The notes under the pieces: generated by a model
The model's input: the letters and a program-made list of their open reading frames with translations, nothing else
Told to the model about the DNA's origin: nothing
The model's database searches: none
Shown: positions 236 to 20,000 of the stretch, piece after piece
Layout: the number at the start of each line of letters is the position of its first letter
Numbering within the stretch: position 1 is the first letter of the stretch
Made by a program: the position numbers and the translations under genes
Sequence record: DRR723986_643
Reading direction: 5' to 3' (one strand)
DNA: 20,000 bases

Positions 236-349
236 AGAAAATACGGTGGACCAGCGCTGCGAGCCGATTGCGGCACCGGTGCTTTCACGCTAGTCTCACC
301 ATACTAAGGCCGCGATTTGACGGCCAAACAGCCCAAACCCGGAGGGGAT

Positions 350-2833
350 ATGAACGACAACAACTGCCCACAAGCCAGAATATCCGGCCATACCGCATCC
401 ATCAGCAAGGCACGCACCACCGCCTCCACGCGCACAAGATTAGCGCAGGCCGTCTCGGTCGCGCTCCTTACTGGTGCAACGGCCGTACCAAGCTATGCAC
501 AGCAGCTCGAGGAAGTGATTGTCACCGCAACCAAGCGGGCTGAGTCGGTCATGGATGTACCTATCGCCATTACCGCCATGTCAGGCGAATCGATCCGCGC
601 GATCAACCTCAACGATATCAAGGACCTGATTGCCTTCACCCCGGGAATCAGCGGCAACAGTAAGGACAGCTTCCTCGATTTCGTCAGCGTTCGCGGTATC
701 CGCACGATTGATTTCGGCAACGGCGGCGATCCGTCCGTCAGCCTGTACAAGAACGGCCTGTACCAGGGGCGTAACGGCTCTGCCGTCTCCAGTCTCTACG
801 ACGTTGAACGGGCCGAGGTCCTGCGTGGACCGCAGGGCTTCCTGTTCGGCCGCAACTCGGTGAGTGGTGCGATGAACATCATCACCAACAAGCCGAATGT
901 CTCCGAGACCGAAGGCTACGCCGAACTGGATGTTGGTGAGCGCAACGTGCTGGTGTTCGAGGGTGGGGTCAATTTCCCGATCACCGATAACCTGGCGGTC
1001 CGGGTGGCGGGCTTCCACACGGAAGAAGACGGCTATGTCGAGAACAGCTTCGGCGGACCTGACCTGATTAACCATGAAAACCAGGCCCTGCGGATCACCA
1101 CGCGCTACGAATCGGACCGCATCACCGCTGACCTGCTGCTGGAATATGAAGATCGGGACCAGTTCGGCTCTGTCTATCGCGCGACCGGCAAGGGCGAGGC
1201 GTTCACTGACGCACAGACCCGGATCAACGGCGGCGTGCCCATCGAACTCTCCCGGGATGGTCGCACGGTCAACAATGACAATTCCCTGCAGCCCACCGAC
1301 CAGTCGGAAATTTTCTCCGTCGGCCTGCTGATGGATATTGACCTGGGCTTTGCAACCCTGACCTCGCTGACCGGGTACAAGGATCACGACTACCAGTACG
1401 TTGAAGACTACGACGCACTGCCGACCATCACCTTCAACTACGGACAGGACCAGAGCGGCGACTATTTCGAGCAGGAACTGCGACTCACCTCCAACGGTGA
1501 TGGGCCGCTGGACTGGTACGCCGGTGCCTCCTACTACAAGGAAGACATCGACACCGTGTTCCTGGGCCAGCAGGAGGAAGACGTTTACTGCCTCGGCTAC
1601 TGGTTCAATACCTGCCAGGACATGTTCGACTACTACAACTACCTGGATTCCTACTACGGCAATACCTATTACTGCGATTACTACCTCGATTACTACTTCG
1701 GCAGCTGTGACTGGACCGCGTCGCCCACCGGCCTGATTAATGACCGCAACCGGATTAAGGGCAAGTATGAGGGCTACTCCACCTACGTGGACCTGAAGTA
1801 CGCCTTCACCGAGAGTTTCGATATCGGTGTGGGTCTGCGTTACACCTATGACGAGAAAGAGTTCTCCCAGGAGGTCCTGGCAGATCCGGGTGGCTCGCTG
1901 CTGAACTTCAAGGTACAGACCGGCTTCTCCACCCCTGAAGGGGCGCTGGAAGACAAGCAGGACTGGGATGAAATCACCTGGCGAGTGGTGGCCAACTGGC
2001 GTCCGGATGATGACTCGCTGATCTTCGGCAGCATCGCCACCGGCTACAAGCCCGGCGGCTTCGGCAGCTTCAATATCGAAGGCCCCGGCGCTGAGGCGTG
2101 TCCCTTTGGATTGTGCGTTGGCGTCCCCGGCTCGGAACTGCCCGGGGACTTTGGCCCGGAAACGGTGACCTCGTTTGAGGTTGGCTACAAGGGAACCCTG
2201 ATGGATGGCAGGACCCAGGTCGCAACCACGGCATTCTACTACCAGTACGAGGACCTGCAGGCGATCTTCGGTGAAGGCCCGCGGACCATTGTCGACAACG
2301 TCGGCGAAGTCGATGGTTGGGGCATTGAGGCCGAGCTGAATACGGCCCTGACCGACAACTTCACCTTGCGCCTCGGCGCGTCGTGGTTCGATTCGGAAGC
2401 GAATGACGTGCAGGCGTTCTGCGGTGCCGGTGAAGTGATTACCGGTTCAGCCGATGCCTGTGAAGGCAACTCGATTCCCTGGGCCCCGGAATACACCGCG
2501 TTTGCCGTGCTCAATGCCAACTTCCCGATCGGCGACAACGGCGGCGAGGCCTTCGGTACGCTGTCCTGGACCTGGGAAGACGACTACCGCGGCGACTGGC
2601 CGGATCCGAGCGTGATCTACCAGCGCATCGAAGCGGTCAACCAGACGGACTTCATTATCGGTTACCGCCAGGAGTCGTGGCACGTCAGCGCCTACGTTGA
2701 GAACGTGTTTGATGACGTGTGGTACGACGGCGCCTACTCCGATGACCCGACCCCGGGTACCATCTTCGTCCAGCACACCTTCGGCCCGGCCCGTCCGCGG
2801 ACGGCCGGGGTTAGACTCGGCTACGAGTTCTGA
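350..2833 (+). CDS. TonB-dependent outer-membrane receptor
   Basis: ATG at 350 follows GGAGGGG (341-347), preferred over the TTG at 317. Long signal peptide ending ..PSYA, TonB box LEEVIVTA, plug motifs (SVRGI; VERAEVLRGPQGFLFGRNSVSGAMNIIT), barrel motifs (TGYKPGGF, PETVTSFEVGYKG) and C-terminal RTAGVRLGYEF ending in Phe. Confidence 0.96.
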   Translation: MNDNNCPQARISGHTASISKARTTASTRTRLAQAVSVALLTGATAVPSYAQQLEEVIVTATKRAESVMDVPIAITAMSGESIRAINLNDIKDLIAFTPGISGNSKDSFLDFVSVRGIRTIDFGNGGDPSVSLYKNGLYQGRNGSAVSSLYDVERAEVLRGPQGFLFGRNSVSGAMNIITNKPNVSETEGYAELDVGERNVLVFEGGVNFPITDNLAVRVAGFHTEEDGYVENSFGGPDLINHENQALRITTRYESDRITADLLLEYEDRDQFGSVYRATGKGEAFTDAQTRINGGVPIELSRDGRTVNNDNSLQPTDQSEIFSVGLLMDIDLGFATLTSLTGYKDHDYQYVEDYDALPTITFNYGQDQSGDYFEQELRLTSNGDGPLDWYAGASYYKEDIDTVFLGQQEEDVYCLGYWFNTCQDMFDYYNYLDSYYGNTYYCDYYLDYYFGSCDWTASPTGLINDRNRIKGKYEGYSTYVDLKYAFTESFDIGVGLRYTYDEKEFSQEVLADPGGSLLNFKVQTGFSTPEGALEDKQDWDEITWRVVANWRPDDDSLIFGSIATGYKPGGFGSFNIEGPGAEACPFGLCVGVPGSELPGDFGPETVTSFEVGYKGTLMDGRTQVATTAFYYQYEDLQAIFGEGPRTIVDNVGEVDGWGIEAELNTALTDNFTLRLGASWFDSEANDVQAFCGAGEVITGSADACEGNSIPWAPEYTAFAVLNANFPIGDNGGEAFGTLSWTWEDDYRGDWPDPSVIYQRIEAVNQTDFIIGYRQESWHVSAYVENVFDDVWYDGAYSDDPTPGTIFVQHTFGPARPRTAGVRLGYEF

Positions 2834-2841
2834 TGACCACT

Positions 2842-2897
2842 CCCTGCCGTCCCGGCAGGGCATCGACGCCCTCCCCTCCGGGGGCGGGCGTATTGTT
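2842..2897 (+). terminator. Tandem GC-rich hairpins between receptor and spdH-like gene (partial terminator or mRNA-stabilising element)
   Basis: CCCTGCCG-tcc-CGGCAGGG (2842-2860), then ACGCCC-t-CCCC-tccg-GGGG-c-GGGCGT (2866-2891) followed by ATTGTT, a weak U-tract. Confidence 0.55.
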
Positions 2898-2906
2898 TGG
2901 TGACAC

Positions 2907-4772
2907 ATGAAACATAGGATTTCCCGCCGCGACTTCGTCAGCGGCATAGCCCTCGGTGCGGCAGGACTCCATCTATCGCCCCTGGAGGCGGTGGCACAAG
3001 GTTTGCTGCCGGCATCGAGCATTGGCCCGGATTATTACCCACCGGCACTGACCGGAATTCGAGGCAGTCACGCCGGTTCCTTCGAAGTCGCCCATGCGGT
3101 AGCGCGCGAAGGCAGGTCCTTTCCGCTACCCAAGCAGGTGAGCGAACAGGTTTACGACCTGGTCGTCGTGGGCGCCGGCATCTCCGGCCTGTCCGCGGCC
3201 AAGTTCTTCCGTGACCGTCACGACAGTGACAGCCGGATCCTGGTACTGGACAACCACGACGATTTCGGCGGCCATGCGCGCCGCAACGAACTGGATGTCG
3301 ACGGGCAGACCCTGCTCGGTTATGGCGGCAGCCAGACCATCGACAATCCCTCCGCTTACTCGCCGGTAGCGAAACAGCTGCTGCGGGACGTTGCGATCGA
3401 CACCGATCGCTTTTATGACTACTTCGACCAGACTTTCTTCAGCCGACGCAATATGACGGCGGGCCTGTACTTCGACCCGGCAAGCTATGGCCGGCACCAG
3501 ATCGTCGCCAACCCGATTGAGGCGGATGGGCTGACGCCGGAGCAGCTGGAAGCCGCAGTACGGGCCATGCCCATACCACCGGAAGACCAGACGGCCTTCC
3601 TCACCCTGCTGGCAGGGGGCGTGGATTACCTGGCAGGTAAAAGCCTGGCGGAGAAGGAAGCCCTGCTGCGCAATATCAGCTATCTCGACTACCTTGAGCA
3701 GTACGCCGGCGTTCCCGCGTCAGTGCGTGAGATCCTGCGCGATTCCTTCCTGCCGATGATTGGTGTGGGCTGGGAAGCAGCTTCCGCCTGGGAGGCGCTG
3801 GAATACCAGTTCCCCGGCACGGCAGATCTGGGGGGTGGCGTGCACCACGAACGTTCTGAACCCTACATCCATCACTTCCCCGACGGCAATGCCGGCGTCG
3901 CGCGATCCCTGGTCCGCGATCTGATTCCGGAGGCCATGCCAGGCAAGAGCATGGAAGACCTGGTTACCACCCGGGCCAACTACGCGGCGCTGGACCGCGA
4001 GGGATCGCCAGTCAGGGTGCGCCTCAACAGCACCGTGGTGCAGGTACGCAACAGCGTCGACGGCAGCGGGGTTGACGTCACCTACGTCAACAAGGGCAAT
4101 GCCTACCGGGTGCGCGCCAGGCACGTGGTGATGGCCTGCTACAACGGGATCATCCCGCATATCTGCCCGGAGGTACCCGAGGCACAGGCGTCAGCGATCC
4201 GCTACGCCACCAAGATACCCTTCGTGATCGGCAGCTTTGCCATCCGTAACTGGCAGGCCTTTGCCGACGCGGGCTATTACATGCTGTACACCCCGGGCGA
4301 CGTGCTGTTCAAGCGTATGCGGCTGGACTTCCCGGTAAGCATGGGCGACTACCAGTTTGCGCAGAAGCCCGACCAGCCGATCGTGATTTCCGCCTGGCAC
4401 TCGCCGACCGCCCGTGGCCTGCCGAACATGCAGCAGTACAAGGCGGGTCGCGCAAAGCTGCTGCAGATGAGCTACACGGATTTTGAGCAGGACATTTTCT
4501 CCCACATGGACGGCATGCTGGGCCCGCACGGATTTGACGCGGAGCGGGACATCGCGGCCATCACCCTGAACCGCTGGCCCCACGGCTATGCCTACGAGTT
4601 CGAGGGGATCGGGGTGCCCGCAGAATATGACCGCTATAACGGCCCGCACATCGCGGGGCGAGCGCAAATCGGCCGCATATCCATCGCTAACTCGGATTCC
4701 GAGGCCTATGCTTATGTCGACGGCGCGATCGATGCAGCCTCCCGCGCGGTGAATGAGCAGCTCGCGATTTAG
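2907..4772 (+). CDS. spdH: Spermidine dehydrogenase SpdH-like FAD/haem-b amine oxidoreductase, Tat-exported
   Basis: Twin-Arg signal ISRRDFVSG; YYPPALTGIRGSHAGSFEVAH; Rossmann motif YDLVVVGAGISGL; NHDDFGGHARRNE; EPYIHHFPDGNA; LNRWPHGYAY; IANSD. All are collinear with P. aeruginosa SpdH as recalled, including the two His residues described as haem ligands (EVAH, RWPHGY). Exact substrate uncertain. Confidence 0.82.
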   Translation: MKHRISRRDFVSGIALGAAGLHLSPLEAVAQGLLPASSIGPDYYPPALTGIRGSHAGSFEVAHAVAREGRSFPLPKQVSEQVYDLVVVGAGISGLSAAKFFRDRHDSDSRILVLDNHDDFGGHARRNELDVDGQTLLGYGGSQTIDNPSAYSPVAKQLLRDVAIDTDRFYDYFDQTFFSRRNMTAGLYFDPASYGRHQIVANPIEADGLTPEQLEAAVRAMPIPPEDQTAFLTLLAGGVDYLAGKSLAEKEALLRNISYLDYLEQYAGVPASVREILRDSFLPMIGVGWEAASAWEALEYQFPGTADLGGGVHHERSEPYIHHFPDGNAGVARSLVRDLIPEAMPGKSMEDLVTTRANYAALDREGSPVRVRLNSTVVQVRNSVDGSGVDVTYVNKGNAYRVRARHVVMACYNGIIPHICPEVPEAQASAIRYATKIPFVIGSFAIRNWQAFADAGYYMLYTPGDVLFKRMRLDFPVSMGDYQFAQKPDQPIVISAWHSPTARGLPNMQQYKAGRAKLLQMSYTDFEQDIFSHMDGMLGPHGFDAERDIAAITLNRWPHGYAYEFEGIGVPAEYDRYNGPHIAGRAQIGRISIANSDSEAYAYVDGAIDAASRAVNEQLAI

Positions 4773-4831
4773 CGAATTTGCCGGCGGGCAGAACTATCAG
4801 AAGCAGTCTTCACGTTTAAAGAGGAAAGACT

Positions 4832-5275
4832 ATGAACAAAATCATCAGCACAGTATGCGCACTGGTACTGGCAGGCAACGCACTGGCGGCAGACCAGGCA
4901 ACCGTCGTGCCAGTGAAGATCACCCCCGATGATATGGCAGGGGCAATCTTCGAGCGCGAGGACATGACCGAAACCACGCACGAGGACGGCCACGTCACCC
5001 TGGATGTGACCAGCCTGCTGTCCAGCGACAAGAAGTTCGCCTCAGGCATGTACAAGTCTGGGAAAACGCGCGCCGAAATCAACGAACCCTATGGCGTTGA
5101 CGAGTTCATGTACTTCCTTTCCGGCAGCGTTACCCTGACCTCCAGCGACGGCACGGTGCAGACAATCAATGCGGGTGAAGCGGTCACCATTCCCAGGGAG
5201 TGGACCGGCATCTGGGATACCGACGGCTACACCAAGATCTGGGTGATTTACTCGGCAGACGGCTCAGGGCTCTAA
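4832..5275 (+). CDS. Secreted cupin-domain protein (DUF861/Cupin_3, EutQ-like)
   Basis: SD GAGGA upstream; Sec signal MNKIISTVCALVLAGNALA; cupin core DEFMYFLSGSVTLTSSDG..INAGEAVTIPREWTGIW. Confidence 0.8.
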   Translation: MNKIISTVCALVLAGNALAADQATVVPVKITPDDMAGAIFEREDMTETTHEDGHVTLDVTSLLSSDKKFASGMYKSGKTRAEINEPYGVDEFMYFLSGSVTLTSSDGTVQTINAGEAVTIPREWTGIWDTDGYTKIWVIYSADGSGL

Positions 5276-5294
5276 ACAGCGTCACCTGCCAGCC

Positions 5295-6890
5295 ATGAAC
5301 GCCAAGCGCTTCGACGCCATTGTCCTTGGTGCCGGCCACAACGGCCTGACTACGGCCAATTACCTCGCCATGGGCGGCATGAACGTCTGCGTACTGGAGC
5401 AGCGCGAGGTGGTCGGCGGCGCGGCGGTCAGCGAAGAATTCCACCCCGGGTATCGCAACTCGCTGGCCTCCTACGTGGTCAGCCTGCTGCGTCAGGAAGT
5501 AGTCAGGGACCTGGAGCTTGAGCGTTATGGCTACGAGCCCATCCTGCTGGAGAACACGCTTTACCTCGACTCGCGGGGTGACTACCTGCTGCTGAACGGC
5601 AACGAGGCGCACGACCGGGCACAGTTCGCGCGCTTCTCGGCCACCGACTATGACGCGATGCACGCCTTCGAGGACAGCGTCGACAAGGTCGGCAGCATTC
5701 TCGCCCAGCAGTGGCTGCGCGAGCCTCCGAAGCTGCACGGCGGCGGCCTCAGCGACCTGCTCGACAGTGTAAAGCTGGGCCTGGACGTCTATCGCCTGGA
5801 CGAGGACAGCCGCTGGCGCCTGCTGCAGTTTTTCCTCGGCGCCCCGCAAAGCATCATCGATCGCTGGTTCGAAAGCGATAAGGTCAAGGCCATGGTTGCC
5901 GCGCATATCATGCCCGCCAACTACACACCCCTGAGCCAACCCGGGGCCAGTCTCGCCATGCTCCATCACGCGGTGGGCGAGGTCGGCGGGCGCAAGGGGG
6001 CCTGGGGCCTGGTACGCGGTGGCATGGGCACCATTACCCAGGCCATGGCGAGCTCCGCCCGGGACAAGGGCGTCACCATCCGCACCGGCGTACCTGTGGA
6101 ACGCATCCTGGTGGAGAACGGCGCGGTCACCGGCGTACAACTGGCAGGTGGCGAAACCCTGGCATGCCCGCTGGTTGCGGCCAATACCGACCCGAAGCGG
6201 ACTTTTCTCACCTTGCTCGGGGAACAACACCTGCCGGCCGACTTCGTGCGCGACATCCGCGCCTTCCGCCAGGAGTCGGCGTCACTGAGGATGAACCTTG
6301 CGCTCAGCGCGCTGCCGGAATTCGCCGCGCTGCCGGGAGCGAGCATCGGCCCGCAGCACCGGGCCAGTATCAGCCTGATCGAAAGCATGCAGCACGTGGA
6401 CCAGGCTTACTGCTCCGCCAAGCTGGGCATTCCCGCGGACCCGCCGATCGTCGAAGCCATCATTCCCAGCGCCAGCGACGACAGCCTGACCGACACCCCG
6501 GGCACCCATGTCATGAGCCTGCTGTGTAAGTACATGCCCTATGACCTCGCCAACGGCGAGCACTGGGACACCAGGAAGCCGGCGGTAGTCGAGGCGGTGC
6601 TGGATCATGTAGGCAAGTTCATTCCCAACCTCGGGGACATCCTGGTCCACGCGCAATGCCTGTCGCCCCTGGATATCGAGCGCCTGTTCGGTATGACCCG
6701 GGGCGATATCTGTCACGGGCGTATGGAACCCGACCAGCTGTACAGCGCCCGCCCCCACCCGCAGGCTGCCCAGTACGCGACACCGGTAAAAGGCCTGTAC
6801 CTTTGCGGCTCAGGCACCCATCCGGGCGGTGGCGTCACCGGCGCACCCGGGCACAATGCCGCACGCCGAATCCTGAAAGACCAGCGCTGA
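5295..6890 (+). CDS. COG1233 (phytoene dehydrogenase-like / PYROXD2-like) FAD-dependent oxidoreductase, paralogue 1
   Basis: DAIVLGAGHNGL; GGAAVSEEFHPGYRNS..SYVVSLL; GGMGTITQAMA; C-terminal GDICHG and GLYLCGSGTHPGGGVTGAPGHNAA. Confidence 0.88.
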   Translation: MNAKRFDAIVLGAGHNGLTTANYLAMGGMNVCVLEQREVVGGAAVSEEFHPGYRNSLASYVVSLLRQEVVRDLELERYGYEPILLENTLYLDSRGDYLLLNGNEAHDRAQFARFSATDYDAMHAFEDSVDKVGSILAQQWLREPPKLHGGGLSDLLDSVKLGLDVYRLDEDSRWRLLQFFLGAPQSIIDRWFESDKVKAMVAAHIMPANYTPLSQPGASLAMLHHAVGEVGGRKGAWGLVRGGMGTITQAMASSARDKGVTIRTGVPVERILVENGAVTGVQLAGGETLACPLVAANTDPKRTFLTLLGEQHLPADFVRDIRAFRQESASLRMNLALSALPEFAALPGASIGPQHRASISLIESMQHVDQAYCSAKLGIPADPPIVEAIIPSASDDSLTDTPGTHVMSLLCKYMPYDLANGEHWDTRKPAVVEAVLDHVGKFIPNLGDILVHAQCLSPLDIERLFGMTRGDICHGRMEPDQLYSARPHPQAAQYATPVKGLYLCGSGTHPGGGVTGAPGHNAARRILKDQR

Positions 6891-6897
6891 GCGAAGG

Positions 6898-8628: not shown

Positions 8629-8664
8629 GCTCGTAGCCTCCTGCGCCGGCGGCAGCCGGACTCG

Positions 8665-10245: not shown

Positions 10246-10271
10246 TTCCTATCCCCGCCTGTGCTGCATTG

Positions 10272-13101: not shown

Positions 13102-14639
13102 TTGAGGATCTCCCGCGCGGCATTGTGCCCGGGGCCTCCCATCAGGCCACCACCGGGGTGGCAACCCGCGCCACAAAGATACAGACCAGGAATCGGCGTG
13201 CTGTACTGCGCCGCTTCGTAGGTGGGGCGCATCATCAGCAGCTGGTCGACGGCAAACTCCGTGTGATGCCAGTGACCACCGGTCACATGGTGCGTCGCCT
13301 CCAGGTCAGCGGGCGTCAGCAGCTCGGCCTGCAGCACCAGGTCGCCCAGGCCAGGCGAATACTCTTCCAGGGTGGCCATGACCCGCTCGGTCAGCCGGGC
13401 GCGGGCCTCCTCGGTCCAGCCGCCCTTCAACCGGGCCGGTACATACATGATGTGGGCAGACAGCACATGCTGTCCCGGTGGCGCCAGTGACGGGTCGTGC
13501 AGGCTGGGAATCAGCAGCTCCAGCACCGGGTTCTCGGAGCACTGCCCGTACTTGGCGTCGTCAAAGGCAAACTCTATGGCATCGGGCTCGGGTGCAATGA
13601 TCATCCGGCCGTCGGCTCGCTCCAGTCCGGGAAAGCGGGGCAGGTCCCGCAGGGCCAGGTGCAGCTTGGCCACATAACCTTCGCAGCGCAGGCGCTGGAT
13701 GCGGTTGGTAAATTCGATTTCCAGGTGACGCGCGCCTACCAGTTGCAGGAAGGTCCGCTGCGGGTCGGCGGAAGACACCACCCGCTGCGCCTGAATCCGC
13801 TCGCCGTCAGCCAGCTCAACCCCGGTCGCCCGCAAACCCTGCTCGTCGCCAGCAACAAGGATTCGCGACACGGGGGTAGAAAAACGCAGCTCCGCACCGG
13901 CCGCGGTCGCCGCGGCCTGCAGGGCACCGACCAGGCCCTCGATGCCGCCGGCGGGCACGCTGTGCAGGCCGCGATGTTCTCCCAGCATCCGGTACAACAG
14001 CGCGAACACCGGGCTGTTGGGCGAGCGCGGCGCCAGCTTCGACCCGATGAGCCCGTCCCAGCTGAGCGCAGCCTGCAGACGCTTGTTATCGAAGTTTTCA
14101 TCCATGAGGTCGCGCATCGGCAAGGTGGCTACCCGCAGGAATTCAAGCATGTCCGCCTTGCCCAGCATCCGCAGCCTCAGACCCAGCTTGCCGAAAGTAA
14201 GCAGTTCGCCGGCGCTGTTATTGCCAATGCGCGGCATGGTCCTGGTCCAGAAGGGCTGCAGGGCGCGAGCAAACTTTTTCAGCGACTCGCGATAGCGCGG
14301 GTATGTAGCTGCGTCCTCATCGCCAACCCCGGTAACCCGGGAGTCCTCAATCACGATGTGCTCACCGGCGGGGTCGAGGGCCACAGTGGCCAGCGCCGGC
14401 CCTGGCTGGTAACCGTGGGCGGCCAGCTTCAATTCAGCTGCGACCTGCGGTGAGAACTGGTTGACGCTGTGGGCGACCGACGCCCGAAAGCCGGGATGGA
14501 ATTCCCGGGTCGACGCCAGGCCACCGGCCATGGCTGCGGCCTCCAGCACCAGCACCCGCTGTCCCTGTCCGGCAAGGTAGGCGGCACAGATGAGCCCGTT
14601 GTGGCCGGCGCCGATAACAATCGTGTCGTAGCTGTTCAT
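13098..14639 (-). CDS. COG1233 FAD-dependent oxidoreductase, paralogue 4 (divergent)
   Basis: ATG at 14639 (MNSYDTIVIGAGHNGL); GGLASTREFHPGF; GGHWHHTE; GLYLCGAGCHPGGGLMGGPGHNAA. The start is inferred from alignment to the other paralogues; the SD is weak. Confidence 0.85.
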   Translation of the reverse strand: MNSYDTIVIGAGHNGLICAAYLAGQGQRVLVLEAAAMAGGLASTREFHPGFRASVAHSVNQFSPQVAAELKLAAHGYQPGPALATVALDPAGEHIVIEDSRVTGVGDEDAATYPRYRESLKKFARALQPFWTRTMPRIGNNSAGELLTFGKLGLRLRMLGKADMLEFLRVATLPMRDLMDENFDNKRLQAALSWDGLIGSKLAPRSPNSPVFALLYRMLGEHRGLHSVPAGGIEGLVGALQAAATAAGAELRFSTPVSRILVAGDEQGLRATGVELADGERIQAQRVVSSADPQRTFLQLVGARHLEIEFTNRIQRLRCEGYVAKLHLALRDLPRFPGLERADGRMIIAPEPDAIEFAFDDAKYGQCSENPVLELLIPSLHDPSLAPPGQHVLSAHIMYVPARLKGGWTEEARARLTERVMATLEEYSPGLGDLVLQAELLTPADLEATHHVTGGHWHHTEFAVDQLLMMRPTYEAAQYSTPIPGLYLCGAGCHPGGGLMGGPGHNAAREILK

Positions 14640-14732
14640 TGAGGGGCGCACCGGCCTGACCTTGATACCGCACAGGCTAACGGCGCCCGCCTCCGGGAAC
14701 AAGCGCCGCCGAGGGACGGACTATTTTCCCGC

Positions 14733-16775
14733 TCAGGCAACGGCCGCCACGTCGACTGTACAGTCGTAGTAACAGGCGCCACCGGCGAGATCGGCCTTGT
14801 GTCCGGGGATCAGTGCGTTGATGGTCTGCCCGGTCGGGCTCTCGGCGATCCACGCTCCCTTGGGAACGAACAGGGTGCCGGTCCTGACCCGGTCAGATAT
14901 CTGCAGTGGCAGATGCACTTCTCCCAGATCGTTGAACAAGCTCACCTGCACGCCCTGCTCCAGCCCGAGGGAGTCGGCGTCCGCAGGATGCATTTCACAG
15001 ACCAGGTCCTTGTCGTGTCGCGCTACGCCACCCAGGGTCGAGTTGATGCGCCGCTCGGAGGCGGGGCTGACCACGACAAAACGGCGTGCGGACCGGAGCT
15101 CGCGAAACCCCGGCAGACCCTGGCCGCACTCGGCCTCAAGCGCCGCGCTGTACAGCTCGATCCTGCCGCTGGGCGTGGCCGGCGGCAGGCCGCGAAGCAG
15201 CCCAGGCGGCGAAACTGCCGACATATCCAGTGCGCTGTCCGTCGGCAGCTCACTGGGACGCAGGCCACCGAGAGCCGGTGCATCCGGCTCAATGGCCTGG
15301 TCCATCAGCGCTGCATCGGAGTCACGAAAGCAGGCTTCCTCAAAACCAAACCGAGCCGCCAGCCTGCGGAACAGTTCGGTATTGGGCAAGGCCTCACCTA
15401 CCGGCGCCAGCACGGGGGCGGATCGCTGCAGGTAATGATGGCCGTAGGCTTTGTACAGATCACCGTATTCCAGGTGACTTGCCGCCGGCAGGATGACGTC
15501 GGCACAGGCCATGGAATCCGTCATGCTGAGATCCGATCCGACCACGAACAGCGACTCATCCAACAGCGCGGCGCGCATCCCGCGCTGGCGTGGGTGTACC
15601 GCAACCGGGTTGTGGTTATAGATGAAGACGGCTTTCACCGGGATCGCGTCACCCGGGTCCCCGATATGGTCCGGCAGATCGAGGACATTGAACTCGCGCA
15701 GTCCCGGCGGAGCCAGGTCAGGGCGACTGAGGGCTTCCGAGGCCACCGGGAAATACCCGGAGACATCGCAGACCCCGGCGCCGGGCTCGCCAAAATTCCC
15801 GGTGAGCGCCGGCAGCGCGAACAAGGCGCGCAGGCCAGAGCCACCATTGCGATTGCGTTCCGGTGCGACACCCACGGAAATCGCCGCGGGGCTGAGTTCC
15901 CGCCAGTAGCGCGCGAACTGGTAGATATCCTCCACCGCCAGCCCACAGAGTGCGGCCGCTCGCTCCGGCGGGTACTGCGCTGCCCGGTCGAGGAATTCGC
16001 GCGCGCCCAGCACATGCTCTGCGATGAAGCTGTCGTCCAACCCGCCCTCCTGCTCCAGCAGGGCCGCCACCGAATACGCCAGCACCACGTCGGTGCCCGG
16101 CATGACCGGCAGGTGCAGGTCAGCAGTTTCGGCAATGCGGGTGCGCTTGGGGTCGACCACCACCAGGCGGGCACCCCGCTTGCGGGCATCGCGCAGCAGG
16201 GTAGTCAGGTGCAGGTTGCAGGCGGTGATATTGTTACCCCAGACCACAATCAATCGCGAATGCGCGAGCTCGGCATAAGAGATGCCACCAACCTCACCGA
16301 ACACGCTGTCCCAGGCCGCGCTCGATGCCCCGGTGCACAGGGGCGTGGAGTCCACCTTGCTGGCACCGAGACGGTTGAAGAAGCGCTGGTCCATGGACCC
16401 GCCCGCCAGCAGCCCCATCGGACCGCCATAGGTCAGAGGCGCGATCGCCTCGCTGCCATATTCCCCAATGATCTGCTGAAAGCGCTCGTACACAGTATCC
16501 AGGGCCTGCTCCCAGGATACCGGGCGAAAAGCCATCGCGCCCTTGGGCCCGTCGCGCAGCAACGGGGTCAGCAGTCGCTGGGGGCCGTGGACCAGTTCCG
16601 GCAGGCCCTCGGCCACCTTGGCGCAGATCTTGCCGCGGGTGAAGGGGTTCGCATGACTGCCGCGGACGCGGTCTACCTTGCCATCGACGACATCGATCGA
16701 CAGGCTGCAGGTGTCCGCACAATCGAGGGGACACACGCTGGGCAGGCTGGTGGCGACGGGCTCGGCGGATGACAT
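14733..16775 (-). CDS. Molybdopterin (bis-MGD) oxidoreductase, DMSO-reductase superfamily, cytoplasmic, substrate unknown
   Basis: N-terminal 4Fe-4S motif CPLDCADTC..NPFTRGKICAK; RLLTPL; SWEQALD; IVVWGNN; VVVDPKRT; PGTD; ADVILPAA; C-terminal MHPADA...FNDLG molybdopterin-dinucleotide domain. No Tat signal. SD AGGGAG 8 nt upstream. Confidence 0.9.
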   Translation of the reverse strand: MSSAEPVATSLPSVCPLDCADTCSLSIDVVDGKVDRVRGSHANPFTRGKICAKVAEGLPELVHGPQRLLTPLLRDGPKGAMAFRPVSWEQALDTVYERFQQIIGEYGSEAIAPLTYGGPMGLLAGGSMDQRFFNRLGASKVDSTPLCTGASSAAWDSVFGEVGGISYAELAHSRLIVVWGNNITACNLHLTTLLRDARKRGARLVVVDPKRTRIAETADLHLPVMPGTDVVLAYSVAALLEQEGGLDDSFIAEHVLGAREFLDRAAQYPPERAAALCGLAVEDIYQFARYWRELSPAAISVGVAPERNRNGGSGLRALFALPALTGNFGEPGAGVCDVSGYFPVASEALSRPDLAPPGLREFNVLDLPDHIGDPGDAIPVKAVFIYNHNPVAVHPRQRGMRAALLDESLFVVGSDLSMTDSMACADVILPAASHLEYGDLYKAYGHHYLQRSAPVLAPVGEALPNTELFRRLAARFGFEEACFRDSDAALMDQAIEPDAPALGGLRPSELPTDSALDMSAVSPPGLLRGLPPATPSGRIELYSAALEAECGQGLPGFRELRSARRFVVVSPASERRINSTLGGVARHDKDLVCEMHPADADSLGLEQGVQVSLFNDLGEVHLPLQISDRVRTGTLFVPKGAWIAESPTGQTINALIPGHKADLAGGACYYDCTVDVAAVA

Positions 16776-16824
16776 GGCACGGACTCCCTGTTGTCGAGCT
16801 TACTACTATAGCCCAGGACGGGGT

Positions 16825-17748
16825 TCAGCCGCTGGCGCGCATGTGCAGAAACTGCAGCGCCAACGACGCCCCGGCAAGCGCGGTGATATCCGCATGATCG
16901 TAAGCGGGGGACACCTCAACCACATCGAAGCCAACAATATTGAGGTGCGACAAGCCCTCGAGGATGCGCAGGGCCCGCGAGGTGGACAAACCGCCTACCA
17001 CCGGCGTGCCGGTGCCGGGCGCAAAGGCCGGATCCAGGCAATCGATATCAAAGGTCAGGTAAGCCGGGCGTTCGCCGACCCGGCTGCAAATGGCCTCCAC
17101 TATCGCTGCCACCGAGGATTCATTGGCCTGATGGGCGTCGATAACCTGGAAGGCGTGGTTGGCACGGTCGTAGTCCGTGCGAATGCCAATCTGGATCGAG
17201 TGCGCCGGATCGATAAGCCCCTCCCTCGGCGCCCGGTGGAACATGCAGCCGTGGCTGTACTTTTCTTCCTCATCGTAGGTGTCGGTGTGCGCATCGAAGT
17301 GAATCAGCGCCAGCTCGCCATGAGTCTGTGCAGTGCCGCGCAGCAGCGGCAGGGTAACGAAGTGATCGCCCCCCAGCGCCACCAGGGTCTTGCCCGCCCC
17401 GGTGATCCGGGCTGCGTGGGCCTCAACCCGGGCGAGCATGTCCTCTGAATCGCCAAACAGGAACTGCACATCGCCATAGTCCGCCACCCGCAGCCTGTCG
17501 GCGAGGGCGAAATCCCAGGGCCAGCGCTTGTCTTCCCAACGCAGGTTAGCGCTGGCCTGGCGTATACCGGTGGGACCGCTGCGGGTGCCCGCGCGCCCGC
17601 TGGTGCCCAGGTCATAGGGTACGCCCATCACGAAGGCGTCCAGCTCCGGATCATCGACATCGCGACTCAGGGGCAGGCCCATAAAACCAAAGACGTTGGC
17701 ATACATCGAGTATTCGCTGCCCGGAAAATCGCTCTCGGAATCCCTCAC
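16825..17748 (-). CDS. speB: Agmatinase (ureohydrolase family)
   Basis: GVPYDLGTSGRAGTRSGPTGIRQAS; GGDHFVT; HFDAHTD; TFDIDCLDPAFAPGTGTP; DVVEVSPAYD..ITAL. These give the full Mn-binding set and closely resemble E. coli SpeB. Confidence 0.88.
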   Translation of the reverse strand: MRDSESDFPGSEYSMYANVFGFMGLPLSRDVDDPELDAFVMGVPYDLGTSGRAGTRSGPTGIRQASANLRWEDKRWPWDFALADRLRVADYGDVQFLFGDSEDMLARVEAHAARITGAGKTLVALGGDHFVTLPLLRGTAQTHGELALIHFDAHTDTYDEEEKYSHGCMFHRAPREGLIDPAHSIQIGIRTDYDRANHAFQVIDAHQANESSVAAIVEAICSRVGERPAYLTFDIDCLDPAFAPGTGTPVVGGLSTSRALRILEGLSHLNIVGFDVVEVSPAYDHADITALAGASLALQFLHMRASG

Positions 17749-17784
17749 CTCTTACTCCCTGCTTATCAGTCACACCCTGCCCGG

Positions 17785-19134
17785 CTAAAGGCAGGCGTCG
17801 TATTCCAACGGCGTTACCTGGCGATCAAATTCGTCCATTTCCTGCTGCTTGAGCAGCACGAAAACCCGCTGGAACTCTTCGCCAAAACGTTCCCGGATGA
17901 AGTCAGAGGATTCGAACCGGGCCAGGGCATCCGGCCAGTACCGCGGCAGACTGGCGGGCACTTGCTCATAGGCATTGCCTTCAAGCGGTTCGGGGGCCTC
18001 CAGCTTGCGTTCTATCCCCTCGAGGATGCCCGCCAGCAGGGCAGCTATCACCAGGTGAGGCTGGGCGTCCGCGCCGCCCACCCGGTGCTCGATGCGGGTA
18101 GCGGCCGGCGCATCCGCCGGCACGCGCAGGGCAACCGTTCGATTTTCATAGCCCCAGGTCGGCGCCATCGGCGCATGGGTGCCGCGCTGGAAGCGCCGGT
18201 AGGAATTCTGGTTCGGTGCGAACAACAGCATCGCATCGGCCATCGTCGACAGGCAGCCGGCGATTGCCTGGCGCAGCAGCGGCGTGCCCTGCCCCGTGCC
18301 ATCGTCGAACGCATTATTGCCGTCGGCATCCAGCAGGCTGCAATGCAGGTGCATGCCGCTGCCCGCCAGTTCGCCGAAAGGTTTGGCCATGAACGTGGCA
18401 ATCAGGTCGTGACGCCTGGCGACGCCCCTGATTGCGCGCTGCAGCATAAACGCCTGGTCAGCCGCCACCAGCGCATCAGGACTGTGGTAGAGATTGATCT
18501 CGTACTGGGAGGGCGCGCTCTCCTTGATCAGGGTATCGATCGGCAACTGCTGGGCATCACAGGCGTCGCGGATTTCGTGCATCAGATCCGCCATCCCGCT
18601 CATGGTATCGATGCAATAGGTCTGCCCGGTCTGCAGCGCGCCGCCGATCCGGTCGGTCTGGGTATGGGTCGGTCGGCCCAGGGTATCGCGCTCGTCGTGC
18701 AGCAGGAAAAACTCCATTTCGCTGGCTACCACCGGCGTCAGCCCAAGGGCTGCCAGCCGGTCAATCTGGCGCTGCAGGATGCCCCGCGGATCGAGCCCGG
18801 AGGCACTGCCGTCCACCTCACTCAGGGATATCATGATCTGGCCAGTCGGCCGCGTGGCCCAGGGCACCGGGGCGAGGGTGCGGATGTCGGCCTGGCACAG
18901 ACCGTCACCGTCGCCGGAATCAAATACCCAGGCTTCCACATCCCGGCCCCAGACATCAAAGGCCTGGGCGCTGAGGGGCAGCTTCAGCCCCCCCGCCACG
19001 ACCTTCTCTATCTTGTCGCGGGTAACCCACTTCCCCCGCAAGCCGCCGGCTATATCCGGCAGGATCACGTCGAACACTTCAATATCAGGATGTGCCTCAA
19101 GAAATGCCTGTAACCGGGTCGCGCTGTTTTCCAT
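17785..19134 (-). CDS. puuA: Glutamine-synthetase-like gamma-glutamyl-polyamine (putrescine) ligase, PuuA/PauA/SpuI family
   Basis: DIAGGLRGKW; ASEMEFFL; ESAPSQYEINL; FMAKPF..LAGSGMHLH; NSYRRF; APTWGYENRT..LRVP; RIEHR. It lacks the GYEAP flap of true GlnA and sits in a polyamine gene context. Confidence 0.82.
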   Translation of the reverse strand: MENSATRLQAFLEAHPDIEVFDVILPDIAGGLRGKWVTRDKIEKVVAGGLKLPLSAQAFDVWGRDVEAWVFDSGDGDGLCQADIRTLAPVPWATRPTGQIMISLSEVDGSASGLDPRGILQRQIDRLAALGLTPVVASEMEFFLLHDERDTLGRPTHTQTDRIGGALQTGQTYCIDTMSGMADLMHEIRDACDAQQLPIDTLIKESAPSQYEINLYHSPDALVAADQAFMLQRAIRGVARRHDLIATFMAKPFGELAGSGMHLHCSLLDADGNNAFDDGTGQGTPLLRQAIAGCLSTMADAMLLFAPNQNSYRRFQRGTHAPMAPTWGYENRTVALRVPADAPAATRIEHRVGGADAQPHLVIAALLAGILEGIERKLEAPEPLEGNAYEQVPASLPRYWPDALARFESSDFIRERFGEEFQRVFVLLKQQEMDEFDRQVTPLEYDACL

Positions 19135-19239
19135 CGTGTCTTATCCGTTTTCCATCCGCTTGCGTGAGAACAAACCACCACCTTTGGGGTAATTCTTCCG
19201 CTACGGGGCTATGACACACTATTTAACTATCTCGCCACC

Positions 19240-19254
19240 TGTTCGGCTATAACA
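19240..19254. promoter_or_regulatory. Candidate operator TGTT-N7-AACA in the divergent puuA/spuC intergenic region
   Basis: TGTTCGGCTATAACA is an inverted repeat that overlaps a -10-like TATAAC (19248-19253) and loosely resembles PuuR/PauR-type sites ending in AACA. Confidence 0.35.
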
Positions 19255-19304
19255 CCTGAGGGTAGACCCGCAGCCCCGGTCGCGCCCCTCACGAGGACAT
19301 CCCA

Positions 19305-20000
19305 ATGAACATGCAAGTTGAAACCAAGAAGCTGCGCAAGCTCGACCAGTCGCACCACCTGCATCCTTTTACCGACTTTCACGACTATGCCGAGCACGGC
19401 GGTCGTATCGTCAACAAGGCCGAGCATATCTATATCTACGATTCGGACGGCCACAAAATGCTCGACGGCATGTCCGGCCTGTGGTGCTGCAATCTGGGCT
19501 ATAGCCAGAAAGCGATCGTCGAGGCGGTTTACCAGCAGATGCAGGAACTGCCTTACTACAACAACTTTTTCCGCTGCTCCAACCAGCCGGCGGTGGAACT
19601 CGCCAAGGCCCTGGTGGATGTGACCCCGGCCAGCTTCAATCACGTGTTTTTCACCAATTCCGGCTCCGAAGCAAACGACACCAACATCCGCCTGGTTCAC
19701 CGTTACTACGACCTGCTCGGGAAACCTGACAAAAAACTGTTCATCAGCCGCAAGAACGCCTACCACGGCAGCACCATCGCCGCGGGTTCGCTGGGTGGAA
19801 TGAATGGCATGCACAAACAGGTTCGCGGCCTGGACTACGTGCACCATATCAACCAGCCGCACTGGTTTGAGCTGGGCGGCGACCAGGACCCGGACGCATT
19901 CGGCCTGCAGGTAGCCCGTGAGCTCGAGGCCAAGATCGATGAACTGGGTGAGGAGAACGTGGCGGCATTCATCGCCGAGCCGGTGCAGGGCGCCGGTGGC
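19305..20000 (+). CDS. spuC: Class III PLP aminotransferase, putrescine/polyamine:pyruvate aminotransferase SpuC-like, 3' truncated
   Basis: Not in ORF track because it runs off the window. SD GAGGA then MNMQVETKKLRKLDQSHHLHPFTD..LDGMSGLWCCNLGY..QELPYYNNFF..FFTNSGSEANDT..ISRKNAYHGST..VAAFIAEPVQGAGG. Confidence 0.88.
   Translation, partial: MNMQVETKKLRKLDQSHHLHPFTDFHDYAEHGGRIVNKAEHIYIYDSDGHKMLDGMSGLWCCNLGYSQKAIVEAVYQQMQELPYYNNFFRCSNQPAVELAKALVDVTPASFNHVFFTNSGSEANDTNIRLVHRYYDLLGKPDKKLFISRKNAYHGSTIAAGSLGGMNGMHKQVRGLDYVHHINQPHWFELGGDQDPDAFGLQVARELEAKIDELGEENVAAFIAEPVQGAGG

Follow-up and report, generated by a model that had tools for sequence, protein, structure and literature searches.

A receptor/SpdH cassette joined to a flavoprotein/folate gene trio: a candidate amine-catabolism island of planktonic marine Halieaceae

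RESULTS

Gene content and layout of the island

ORF, Pfam, and NCBIfam searches of the frames of a 20,000-nt stretch of DNA (sequence record DRR723986_643, here called the window) lead us to propose, with moderate confidence, that planktonic marine Halieaceae carry a composite amine-catabolism island, with a TonB-dependent receptor and an SpdH-type dehydrogenase as its front end and a flavoprotein/folate demethylating system as its back end. The host of the window is a planktonic marine Halieaceae bacterium, and the window was found in marine plankton metagenomes. Every gene class named in the original prediction is present: the receptor, SpdH, an SSS symporter, four flavoproteins (F1 to F4), a GcvT-like protein, a Mo enzyme, and polyamine genes. 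They form two convergent rows, with gaps of at most 87 bases or overlaps between genes; the minus-strand row runs from a GS-like ligase through agmatinase, the Mo enzyme, F4, F3, the GcvT-like protein, and F2 to the SSS symporter. Independent metagenome contigs span the GcvT/F2 and F1/SSS junctions, so the gene order did not arise by chimeric assembly. Between GcvT and F2, the closest relatives carry a regulator, a second GS-like gene, a DAO gene, and a membrane protein gene, all absent from the window.

The receptor and SpdH form a cassette kept within Halieaceae

The cluster had been placed from position 350 onward, the first ATG of the receptor frame (317..2833, plus strand; Pfam Plug, 57.4 bits; TonB_dep_Rec_b-barrel, 104.2 bits). 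That boundary needs revision: bases 1..186 (plus strand) already belong to a TPR-sulfotransferase gene (3' end, final 61 codons) that precedes the receptor in relatives too, with 80 to 82% tblastx identity to the ends of the genes upstream of the receptor in genomes G004 and G005. Downstream of the receptor on the same strand are genes for an SpdH-type FAD/heme polyamine dehydrogenase (2907..4772) and a small EutQ-like cupin (4832..5275; Pfam Cupin_3, 36.8 bits), whose PDB relatives are uncharacterized proteins only. The dehydrogenase matches Pseudomonas aeruginosa SpdH (7d9j; phmmer E value, 1.6e-147), aligning over residues 5 to 617 of 621, and an N-terminal SRRDF motif is common to both. 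Sulfotransferase, receptor, and SpdH genes occur in this order in six sources, the window and G001 to G005, and the sulfotransferase adjoins the receptor in all five of these genomes. The cupin follows SpdH in five of the six (the exception is G005), and in three of them (the window, G003, and G004) F1 and the cassette are encoded on one strand.

The receptor has no close solved relative, its PDB matches running through the plug domain only. These matches are siderophore or pesticin receptors, and the best NCBIfam match is a siderophore-receptor subfamily, in line with an alternative in which the receptor imports a polyamine-based siderophore whose backbone is dismantled or recycled by SpdH and the flavoproteins. 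We consider this very improbable. The receptor scores 137.3 against a subfamily cut-off of 223.5; siderophore biosynthesis, ferric reductase, periplasmic binding protein, and iron-ABC genes are absent from the window and the conserved neighborhood; and the folate and one-carbon genes would be left unexplained.

Protein locations were read by eye from the N termini of the translations. SpdH, with its twin-arginine N terminus, is probably exported; the N terminus of the cupin is signal-peptide-like, and the flavoproteins have neither kind. The predicted locations agree with the order of events first proposed, in which SpdH acts in the periplasm ahead of demethylation by the flavoproteins.

Receptor, SpdH, and F3 genes were surveyed in 151 Halieaceae genomes, which hold up to seven SpdH copies each. 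A receptor orthologue lies 22 to 267 bases from 28 of the 42 close SpdH copies (at least 51% identity), so the predicted pairing of receptor and SpdH is strongly kept within the family. Of eight distant SpdH paralogues, none adjoins a receptor. Outside Halieaceae it does not hold, the partner of SpdH there being the cupin: among 13 order-level SpdH loci, the cupin adjoins SpdH in 8 and the receptor is found in only 3, all three Halieaceae genomes. At two loci (L045 and L071), receptor orthologues with 65 to 66% identity stand directly beside the flavoprotein/folate genes described next.

F4, F3, and the GcvT-like protein are an invariant trio

The core of the minus-strand row is an invariant trio: F4 (13098..14702; likely start near ORF residue 22; Pfam Amino_oxidase, 74.6 bits), F3 (11482..13104; 539 to 540 amino acids; orthologues named PYROXD2 in UniProt), and a stand-alone GcvT-like tetrahydrofolate-binding protein of 409 amino acids (10272..11501; PF01571, 195.9 bits). 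We surveyed 80 related loci and counted neighbors over 66 sources. All loci long enough to include F3 have it upstream of GcvT (71 of 71), and all those long enough to include F4 have it immediately before F3 (69 of 69). The most conserved member is F3, with at least 84% identity in all 120 protein clusters among the matches listed. A paralogous second trio is close by in 14 of the 80 loci. It also occurs on plasmids of soil and rhizosphere Alphaproteobacteria, beside genes for a PotD-like ABC transporter, an aminotransferase, a Rieske oxygenase, and a deacetylase-family protein; the trio is common in sediment lineages (Woeseiaceae) as well. Our literature search found no publications on the trio. 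The SSS-family sodium:solute symporter that ends the row (6898..8577, minus strand; Pfam SSF, 94 bits) scores under every NCBIfam equivalog cut-off and has orthologues in 17 of the 66 sources.

The remaining flavoproteins, F1 (5295..6890, plus strand; Pfam Amino_oxidase, DAO, and NAD_binding_8) and F2 (8665..10245, minus strand; Pfam and NCBIfam matches as for F1), are CrtI/PYROXD2-like. All four are CrtI/COG1233-type paralogues with 32 to 43% mutual identity; F1 and F2, 43% identical, each form their own clade (support, 100). Automatic annotation as phytoene dehydrogenases would make them carotenoid desaturases or ketolases, in keeping with CrtO as the best NCBIfam model and CrtD and CrtI as the nearest solved folds. 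That assignment is almost certainly wrong, being contradicted by NCBIfam membership tests: scores fall far under the cut-offs for CrtO (231 to 276 bits, F1 at 231, versus 1000) and the CrtI family (94 to 125 versus 238.1). Moreover, the window and the 66 neighborhoods hold no other carotenoid gene, and the flavoproteins are invariably linked to the folate-binding protein. In the predicted model of F3 (pLDDT, 78.9), CrtD/CrtI are closely followed by putrescine and monoamine oxidases (flavin amine oxidases); the modeled fold appears compatible with amine oxidation and C-C desaturation alike and cannot tell them apart.

The GcvT-like protein scores under the NCBIfam cut-offs of GcvT, DmdA, and Tdm. 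Among solved structures, it best matches the THF domain of trimethylamine N-oxide (TMAO) demethylase (9q5a; E value, 1e-47).

Mo enzyme and amine genes of the same row

Directly upstream of F4, as in 14 of the 80 loci, is a cytoplasmic Mo-bisMGD oxidoreductase (14733..16775, minus strand; Pfam Molybdopterin, Molydop_binding, and Molybdop_Fe4S4) with an N-terminal 4Fe-4S motif. In alignment with FdhH, a Cys stands at the site of the Mo ligand, but Thr and Ser occupy the positions of His141 and Arg333. Across the 66 sources, 15 carry the Mo-bisMGD enzyme, 24 a MOSC-domain protein, 27 neither, and none both; both kinds of enzyme include N-oxide reductases.

The row begins with a PuuA/PauA-like GS-like ligase (17785..19134; Pfam Gln-synt_C, 336.3 bits), which is under the NCBIfam cut-offs (GGputSyn, 214 versus 650; type III GS, 216.9 versus 469.6), and the agmatinase-family ureohydrolase SpeB (16825..17748; NF002564, 422 bits with a cut-off of 302; TIGR01230, 273.1 bits with a cut-off of 174.3). 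Divergent from the ligase is the 5' part of a class III aminotransferase gene of the SpuC/beta-alanine-pyruvate type (19305..20000, plus strand, cut by the window end; Pfam Aminotran_3, 122.7 bits; NF005682, 363 bits over 232 residues). A minus-strand ORF at 19227-20000 has no Pfam family match and was taken as a shadow of the aminotransferase gene.

The two halves are recurrently linked yet separable

Amine and one-carbon genes recur beside the trio; its neighbors in the 66 sources include an AraC-type regulator (42), a DAO-family oxidase (37), a GS-like protein (21), SpdH (13), PurU (11), GFA (11), and FTHFS (2). The one-carbon genes PurU, GFA, and FTHFS near the trio support demethylation. 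At one locus (L013), a beta-alanine aminotransferase above its cut-off is joined by a malonate-semialdehyde-type dehydrogenase, and the clusters of these two proteins occur in six and five sources, respectively. In 21 of the 66 sources, no recognized amine gene stands beside the trio.

In 14 of the 80 loci, from at least five lineages, SpdH and GcvT genes are no more than 10 kb apart, where about 1 to 3 such loci would be expected by chance. The expectation that other genomes, too, carry the flavoprotein and GcvT genes together with polyamine genes thus survived the comparison that could have overturned it. By lineage, SpdH is near the trio in 5 of 32 Halieaceae, 2 of 7 Woeseiaceae, 2 of 3 Porticoccaceae, 2 of 10 unassigned Cellvibrionales, 1 of 4 alphaproteobacterial, and 2 of 16 other loci; it is near none of the 8 Lysobacterales trio loci. 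The F3 family and SpdH occur together in 61 of the 151 Halieaceae genomes; 16 have F3 only, 20 SpdH only, and 54 neither, an odds ratio of 10.3 with no correction for genome size, completeness, or relatedness. A distance of 1.3 Mb separates the trio from the receptor-SpdH cassette in Congregibacter (G001). The receptor-fed SpdH front end and the putative folate-linked demethylase back end are therefore real and recurrently linked, yet separable. The proposal of a single TonB-fed system stands as far as the recurrent SpdH/trio and receptor/SpdH linkages go; it is weakened by the distance between the halves in Congregibacter.

That distance, together with the single-half Halieaceae genomes, also favors a serious rival, which we rate as possible though clearly less probable than a composite island: two independent systems that merely share a nitrogen-scavenging island, with no joint pathway. 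The receptor-SpdH-cupin cassette, agmatinase, GS-like ligase, and aminotransferase would scavenge dilute ordinary polyamines and agmatine, and the trio and Mo enzyme would degrade trimethylamine, dimethylamine, perhaps TMAO reduced by the Mo enzyme, or betaine-derived amines. The kinship of the GcvT-like protein with the TMAO demethylase THF domain suits small methylamines, as do the mutual exclusion of Mo-bisMGD and MOSC-domain proteins and the GbcA-like Rieske oxygenases and AraC-type regulator found between two trios in five loci. A Tdm-length DUF1989 frame is absent from the 151 Halieaceae genomes, so a noncanonical demethylation route would fill a gap. In addition, levels of trimethylamine in urine and of dimethylamine in plasma are reported to be associated with the human PYROXD2 locus (PMC3169529). 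Against two separate systems, several lineages have genes for SpdH, a receptor orthologue, or F1 intermingled with those of the trio, and in the window the agmatinase, GS-like ligase, Mo enzyme, trio, F2, and symporter make up one closely spaced row. Aminotransferases, beta-alanine catabolic genes, and PotD-like transporters near trios suggest substrates with primary amino groups and carbon chains, and the loci, inspected without a search by gene name, showed no known small-methylamine uptake genes.

DISCUSSION

In the composite island that we favor, a polyamine-type cation would cross the outer membrane through the TonB-dependent receptor, a role suggested by gene linkage, and would be cut in the periplasm by the SpdH-type dehydrogenase, probably Tat-exported, assisted by its conserved partner, the putatively secreted small cupin. 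SpdH converts spermidine to 1,3-diaminopropane and 4-aminobutanal (PMC8437039), and electrons in the SpdH family are reported to pass from FAD to heme b (PMC12564564). The cleavage fragments would enter the cell through the SSS symporter. There F4, F3, and the GcvT-like protein may act as one unit, F4/F3 oxidizing an N-methyl or N-alkyl C-N bond and the GcvT-like protein trapping the one-carbon product on tetrahydrofolate. We infer this mechanism by analogy with dimethylglycine/sarcosine dehydrogenases, heterotetrameric sarcosine oxidase, and the THF domain of TMAO demethylase, to which formaldehyde is reported to be channeled (PMC13619132). F1 and F2 probably oxidize further C-N bonds in these fragments, the Mo enzyme with its Cys ligand would provide one redox step, and agmatinase, the GS-like ligase, and the aminotransferase would pass the resulting primary amines to gamma-glutamylation or transamination.

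The window SpdH is a full-length homologue of P. aeruginosa SpdH (7d9f-7d9j), sharing its twin-arginine N terminus and FAD-binding motif, but it comes from a multicopy family, and its gene partners are a TonB-dependent receptor, a TPR-sulfotransferase, and a secreted cupin. Like dimethylglycine/sarcosine dehydrogenase, dimethylglycine oxidase, and SoxABDG, the trio would combine flavin oxidases with a GcvT-fold tetrahydrofolate site of the kind that captures the one-carbon product, and the GcvT-like protein matches domains of 1pj5, 2gag, and 4p9s. Unlike in those folate-linked demethylases, its flavoproteins are two CrtI/PYROXD2-type paralogues rather than DAO-type, and its three parts are separate genes without delta or gamma subunits. 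The solved structure nearest to the GcvT-like protein is the C-terminal THF-binding domain of Tdm (9q59/9q5a), but the window protein lacks the DUF1989 catalytic domain.

With the Puu/Pau/Spu pathways of Escherichia coli and P. aeruginosa the window shares a GS-like ligase, a class III aminotransferase, and agmatinase, to which its relatives add a PuuB-like DAO oxidase, a C26 amidotransferase, and aldehyde dehydrogenases. However, the GS-like proteins here fall under the PuuA model cut-off, uptake would use a TonB receptor and SSS/MFS carriers instead of PotABCD/SpuDEFGH/PuuP, and those pathways have no counterpart of the flavoprotein trio and Mo enzyme. TonB-dependent loci for carbohydrates and vitamin B12 likewise encode a receptor together with degradative enzymes of the periplasm and a carrier of the inner membrane, but here the enzyme partner is a polyamine dehydrogenase; to our knowledge, no outer membrane TonB receptor for polyamines has been described. 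F3 orthologues share a UniProt name with human PYROXD2, an orphan mitochondrial flavoprotein for which we know of no GcvT-like partner. The association of the human locus with trimethylamine and dimethylamine would fit an action on methylated amines.

A more specific and, in our judgment, improbable version has the island harvesting diatom long-chain N-methylated polyamines, with the receptor importing these bulky polycations, SpdH paralogues cutting them into N-methyl-aminopropyl pieces, and the trio demethylating these to beta-alanine or diaminopropane units. It would call for a receptor that admits solutes porins cannot pass, an exported dehydrogenase acting on polyamines, and a folate-linked demethylase, just the parts found, and beta-alanine aminotransferase and malonate-semialdehyde-type dehydrogenase in some relatives, multicopy SpdH in Halieaceae, and the planktonic occurrence of the window are consistent with it. 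Halieaceae are also reported to be transcriptionally prominent in phytoplankton blooms (PMC9478159). Yet no result of our analysis bears on substrate size or origin, our literature search found no paper on bacterial long-chain polyamine breakdown, and diatom silica amines are unlikely in the sediments, soils, and rhizospheres where Woeseiaceae and alphaproteobacterial plasmids carry the trio.

We know of no natural N-methylated polyamine established as a bacterial growth substrate. For the composite island, polyamine-type compounds bearing N-methyl groups are nevertheless the most likely substrates, and the joining of a receptor and an exported SpdH-type enzyme to the flavoprotein/folate trio probably serves the uptake and demethylation of polyamine-like nitrogen compounds.

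Organization of the island

ORF calling combined with Pfam and NCBIfam searches resolved the 20-kb window into 13 genes and the 3' end of another. The plus strand carries the last 61 codons of a TPR-sulfotransferase gene (1-186), a TonB-dependent receptor gene (317/350-2833), a full-length SpdH homologue (2907-4772), a small cupin (4832-5275), and F1 (5295-6890), the first of four paralogous CrtI/COG1233 (PYROXD2-like) flavoproteins that we designate F1 to F4. A convergent row on the minus strand, running from 19134 down to 6898 with gaps of at most 87 bases or overlaps, encodes a GS-like ligase, an agmatinase, a cytoplasmic Mo-bisMGD enzyme (14733-16775), F4, F3, a stand-alone GcvT-like tetrahydrofolate-binding protein, F2, and an SSS symporter. 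A class-III aminotransferase gene, transcribed divergently from the GS-like gene, is truncated at the end of the window. Metagenome contigs span both the GcvT/F2 and the F1/SSS junctions, and the gene inventory of the original prediction is therefore confirmed.

The stretch occurs in marine plankton metagenomes, and the closest relatives of its GcvT-like protein (84 to 85% identical) belong to the OM60/NOR5 group of the Halieaceae. Compared with these relatives, the window lacks a 5.4-kb segment separating GcvT from F2 (window 10245-10272 versus L003:11218-16617, a related locus), which encodes a membrane protein, an AraC regulator, a second GS-like gene, and a DAO oxidase. The shortened junction was spanned by contigs from two runs. 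No RNA family reached threshold in the window, a promoter scan returned one site against 4.6 expected, terminator-like sites were at chance level, and the intergenic regions, when compared, had no common motif of at least 9 bases of regulatory appearance. The receptor-SpdH intergenic region (2834-2906) contains a G+C-rich inverted repeat, which may act as a partial terminator and so fix how much receptor transcript is made relative to the genes downstream.

Among the remaining enzymes, the agmatinase exceeded its model cutoffs (NF002564, 422 versus 302; TIGR01230, 273.1 versus 174.3). The GS-like ligase contains a GS catalytic domain (336.3 bits) and fell below the cutoff for the gamma-glutamylputrescine synthetase PuuA (NF045547, 214 versus 650). 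The Mo enzyme likewise scored below the formate dehydrogenase model TIGR01591 (234.4 versus 666.25), and in alignment with structure 1aa6 it has Cys at Sec140, Thr at His141, and Ser at Arg333. Enzymes of the FdhF/FdhH type presumably use Cys or Sec as the Mo ligand, followed by His, together with a conserved Arg. Because the window enzyme lacks this active-site His and Arg, we do not regard it as a formate dehydrogenase.

Genes for two flavoproteins and a GcvT-like protein form a conserved trio

A scan at one genome per species yielded 80 loci with a GcvT-like gene 67 to 85% identical to that of the window, distributed among Halieaceae, Woeseiaceae, Lysobacterales, Porticoccaceae/SAR92, unassigned Cellvibrionales, and a few Alphaproteobacteria. 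Wherever a locus left room for it (71 of 71), F3 was the gene immediately upstream of the GcvT-like gene, and F4 lay upstream of F3 at all 69 loci with room. F3 is the most conserved part of this trio, with at least 84% identity in all 120 protein clusters among the matches listed. A gene of the F3 family was present in 77 of 151 Halieaceae genomes, the window's own F3 type in 52 of them; of 400 evenly sampled Gammaproteobacteria, only one besides the centre genome had the orthologue. F1 to F4 are mutually 32 to 43% identical and formed four well-supported clades in a quick tree. At locus L024, labeled Cryomorphaceae (Bacteroidota), the F3 sequence groups inside Halieaceae/Cellvibrionales in the tree, and the contig is probably misbinned.

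At 14 of the 80 loci, a second trio, paralogous to the first and arranged F3'-F4'-GcvT' (identities of about 60, 44, and 47%), is found close by. It is also found on plasmids or chromids of Rhizobium, Shinella, Ensifer, Fuscovulum, and Parasedimentitalea, where its neighbors are a TetR regulator, a PotD-like ABC transporter, an aminotransferase, and a Rieske oxygenase and, in one case, deacetylase-family and GNAT genes as well. Of 284 longer homologues, two were fused F4'-GcvT' gene calls, each of them a singleton with 85 to 110 unaligned linker residues and possibly a frameshift artifact. A literature search for COG1233/phytoene dehydrogenase together with aminomethyltransferase found no account of such a unit.

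The trio as a putative split folate-linked demethylase

The GcvT-like protein scored below the models for GcvT proper (TIGR00528, 149.8 versus 235.85; NF001567, 202.9 versus 300), Pfam and NCBIfam searches detected no glycine-cleavage H or P protein in the window, and the NCBIfam model for DmdA was also failed. Among solved structures, the tetrahydrofolate domain of the TMAO demethylase Tdm is closest to the GcvT-like protein, followed by true T-proteins and by the folate domains of oxidases and dehydrogenases that act on sarcosine and dimethylglycine. Assignment as Tdm itself was rejected (NF053776, 247.2 versus 1100, with matches to profile positions 386-760 only): the window protein, at 409 amino acids, consists of GCV_T domains only, whereas Tdm carries a fused DUF1989 catalytic domain. 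In TMAO demethylase, formaldehyde is reported to reach the tetrahydrofolate domain through a tunnel (PMC13619132). With DMGDH, SARDH, DMGO, and SoxABDG, the window protein shares the GcvT-fold module (PF01571, 195.9 bits; PF08669, 34.2 bits; structures 1pj5, 2gag, and 4p9s). In those demethylases, however, the folate module is fused to or complexed with a DAO-type flavoprotein, while in the window the adjoining flavoproteins are separate and of the CrtI/amine-oxidase type.

The flavoproteins fell far short of the models for CrtO (231 to 276 bits, cutoff 1000) and the CrtI family TIGR02734 (94 to 125 bits versus 238.1), and no carotenoid genes were found among the neighbors in the window or in annotated trio neighborhoods; a carotenoid role for them is poorly supported. 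A structural model of F3 (pLDDT 78.9) was nearest CrtD/CrtI, with putrescine oxidase, monoamine oxidases, and nicotine oxidoreductase close behind; the fold search did not separate amine oxidation from carotenoid-type desaturation. Two F3 orthologues bear the UniProt name PYROXD2, and a Protein Atlas search with an F3 orthologue returned only generic phytoene-desaturase or PYROXD2-named clusters. In humans, the PYROXD2 locus has a reported association with trimethylamine in urine and dimethylamine in plasma (PMC3169529). The most economical reading, as we infer it, is that the trio would be a split folate-linked oxidative N-demethylase or dealkylase.

Genes that accompany the trio

For a census of neighbors, ORFs were clustered from 66 sources, comprising the window and the 65 loci of at least 9 kb; 15 shorter loci were excluded. 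The most frequent companions were an AraC regulator with a SnoaL-like domain (42 of 66 sources), a multipass membrane protein without a family (40), and a DAO-type oxidase (37), followed by a MOSC protein (24), a second GS-like ligase (21), F1/F2-type flavoproteins (21), the SSS symporter (17), the Mo-bisMGD enzyme (15), and SpdH (13). PurU, GFA, and an MFS carrier were each present in 11, and PurU or GFA in 22. Less common were clusters of a beta-alanine-type aminotransferase (6) and a malonate-semialdehyde-type dehydrogenase (5), whose representatives at locus L013 exceed model cutoffs, a GbcA-like Rieske oxygenase (5), FTHFS (2), and a C26 amidotransferase (2). At least one recognized amine gene was found in 45 of the 66 sources, and none in 21.

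The frequent membrane protein, of about 293 amino acids with several hydrophobic helices judged by eye, adjoins the GcvT-like gene in its 40 sources, is not in the window, and had no Pfam or NCBIfam match (e.g., L009:4674-5555 and L003:11218-12075, both minus strand). At L004 (6376-11772) and L053, the trio is followed downstream by an 1,800-amino-acid protein in which acyl-CoA synthetase, enoyl-CoA hydratase, and reductase domains are fused, accompanied by an Fe-alcohol dehydrogenase. The fusion is similar to propionyl-CoA synthase, a likeness that points to a three-carbon acid product.

The Mo-bisMGD enzyme and the MOSC protein, present in 15 and 24 sources, respectively, were never found together (0 of 66). 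This exclusion may represent substitution, or clade structure only; the alternation could indicate that a molybdenum-dependent step, possibly N-O reduction, is conserved. These observations bear on the main alternative account, in which the trio and its Mo or MOSC partner act on small methylated amines or N-oxides and are merely colocated with the receptor and SpdH genes. Speaking for it are the Tdm-like folate domain, the association of PYROXD2 with trimethylamine and dimethylamine, the Rieske/betaine-type contexts, and the finding that none of the 151 Halieaceae genomes has a gene of Tdm length. DUF1989 occurred in 30 of these genomes, only as short tandem-paired frames of 145 to 395 amino acids, a layout that we take to be that of urea-carboxylase-associated proteins and not of TMAO demethylase. 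We consider the account of small methylated amines or N-oxides somewhat unlikely.

Receptor, SpdH, and cupin form a putative front end

Residues 5 to 617 of the 621 in the window SpdH align with residues 3 to 618 of the 620 in Pseudomonas aeruginosa SpdH (7d9j; E = 1.6e-147). The alignment places the twin-arginine motif SRRDF at the N terminus of both enzymes, and Pfam assigns residues 87 to 161 to NAD_binding_8, an FAD dinucleotide-binding motif. By eye, the cupin and the receptor have signal-peptide-like N termini and the flavoproteins do not. The receptor combines a Plug domain (PF07715, 57.4 bits) with a 22-strand barrel domain (PF00593, 104.2 bits). It fell below the cutoff of the siderophore-receptor subfamily TIGR01783 (137.3 versus 223.5 bits), and a siderophore role for the island is poorly supported. 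Sequence matches of the receptor, symporter, and cupin to solved structures gave no lead to function.

The window and five genomes from different genera (G001 to G005) share the order sulfotransferase-receptor-SpdH. The cupin follows SpdH in the window and in G001 to G004 and is missing from that position in G005; F1 lies on the same strand as the receptor-SpdH cassette in the window, G003, and G004. SpdH is multicopy in Halieaceae, reaching a maximum of seven copies per genome (seven each in G002 and G534, four in G001, a Congregibacter), and pairing with the receptor is confined to the subfamily whose identity to the window copy is about 50% or more. Across the 151 Halieaceae genomes, 28 of 42 SpdH matches at least 51% identical lie 22 to 267 bases from a receptor orthologue, counted with the best 55 receptor matches, and one further match has a receptor orthologue within 8 kb. 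Beside distant SpdH paralogues (37 to 42% identity), the receptor was found at none of eight loci.

In an order-level sample of 301 genomes, 13 carried a close SpdH. The receptor was its neighbor at 3 of these 13 loci, all in Halieaceae genomes, and the cupin immediately adjoined it at 8 (L096 to L102 and L106), mostly from genomes outside the Halieaceae sample. The link to the receptor is therefore mainly a trait of Halieaceae, and the pairing of SpdH with the cupin is the older one. This small secreted protein looks like an SpdH partner not previously described. A literature search on spermidine dehydrogenase and TonB gave nothing judged relevant to the pairing.

In the window and in G001 to G005, the sulfotransferase gene directly flanks the receptor, on the opposite side from SpdH. 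Related sulfotransferases are also found next to other receptors, accompanied by Asp/Asn-hydroxylase-like genes and a gene for a 313-amino-acid protein without family assignment (L083 to L086 and L092). A second membrane protein, of about 292 amino acids and without family assignment (e.g., L041:18899-19777, plus strand), lies beside or near SpdH in 6 of its 12 loci (L046, L064, L079, L076, L038, and L041) and could be the electron acceptor of the SpdH heme-flavoprotein.

The two halves are linked in part

At 14 of the 80 loci, the GcvT-like gene has an SpdH homologue no more than 10 kb away, against a crude chance expectation of 1 to 3. By lineage, these make up 5 of 32 loci in Halieaceae, 2 of 7 in Woeseiaceae, 2 of 3 in Porticoccaceae, 2 of 10 in unassigned Cellvibrionales, 1 of 4 in Alphaproteobacteria, 0 of 8 in Lysobacterales, and 2 of 16 in others. 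Receptor orthologues (65 to 66% identity) stand directly beside the trio at one Woeseia locus and one other gammaproteobacterial locus. Among the 151 Halieaceae genomes, the F3 family and SpdH occur together in 61, F3 alone in 16, SpdH alone in 20, and neither in 54, giving an odds ratio of 10.3 that is uncorrected for relatedness, genome size, and completeness. SpdH is present in 47 of the 52 genomes with the window's F3 type; on the same contig and within 25 kb of that F3, SpdH was found in 17 of 51 genomes and the receptor in 11 of 51, counts that are lower bounds, many genomes being fragmented. The expectation that these genes would keep a common neighborhood thus held for SpdH near the trio and for receptor-SpdH pairs, but in Congregibacter (G001) cassette and trio lie 1.3 Mb apart.

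Taken as a whole, the proposal of TonB-fed breakdown of large or N-methylated polyamines is supported in part: SpdH and the receptor are linked within an amine island, but there is evidence against one fixed pathway. Our main reading is of a single amine-catabolic island, in which receptor, SpdH, and cupin would serve as the front end for uptake and cleavage and the flavoprotein/GcvT trio would act on the imported fragments as a folate-linked demethylase. If the trio demethylates such fragments, the substrates would therefore be polyamine-type compounds with N-methyl groups. We judge the chances of this reading to be about even.

Diatom long-chain polyamines as the substrate would fit the parts, and a literature search on their breakdown by bacteria gave no paper that, judged by title and abstract, described a catabolic system; we hold this identification to be very improbable. 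Scarcely less improbable is the broader proposal that Halieaceae and other bloom-associated marine bacteria have a dedicated locus, in which the receptor and exported SpdH paralogues harvest large N-methylated polyamines (for example, from diatom biosilica) and the trio, as a three-protein enzyme not known before, passes the methyl groups to tetrahydrofolate. Were it true, it would be the first TonB-dependent uptake route for polycations and would give the reaction of the orphan human enzyme PYROXD2.

Implications

Polyamines and methylated amines rank among the major sources of labile nitrogen in the ocean. To our knowledge, the known bacterial routes (Pot/Spu/Puu and Tmm/Tdm/Dmm) include none of the central parts found here. 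The trio is widespread in marine Gammaproteobacteria and is also carried on alphaproteobacterial plasmids. Several carriers are cultured (Luminiphilus syltensis NOR5-1B, Congregibacter variabilis IMCC43200, and Parahalioglobus pacificus KCTC 23430), so ordinary tests suffice. If the main reading, a single amine-catabolic island, is true, polyamine-type cations would be added to the cargo classes of TonB-dependent receptors, folate-linked N-demethylases would gain a new make-up, and the orphan, disease-linked human PYROXD2 would have a directly testable reaction.
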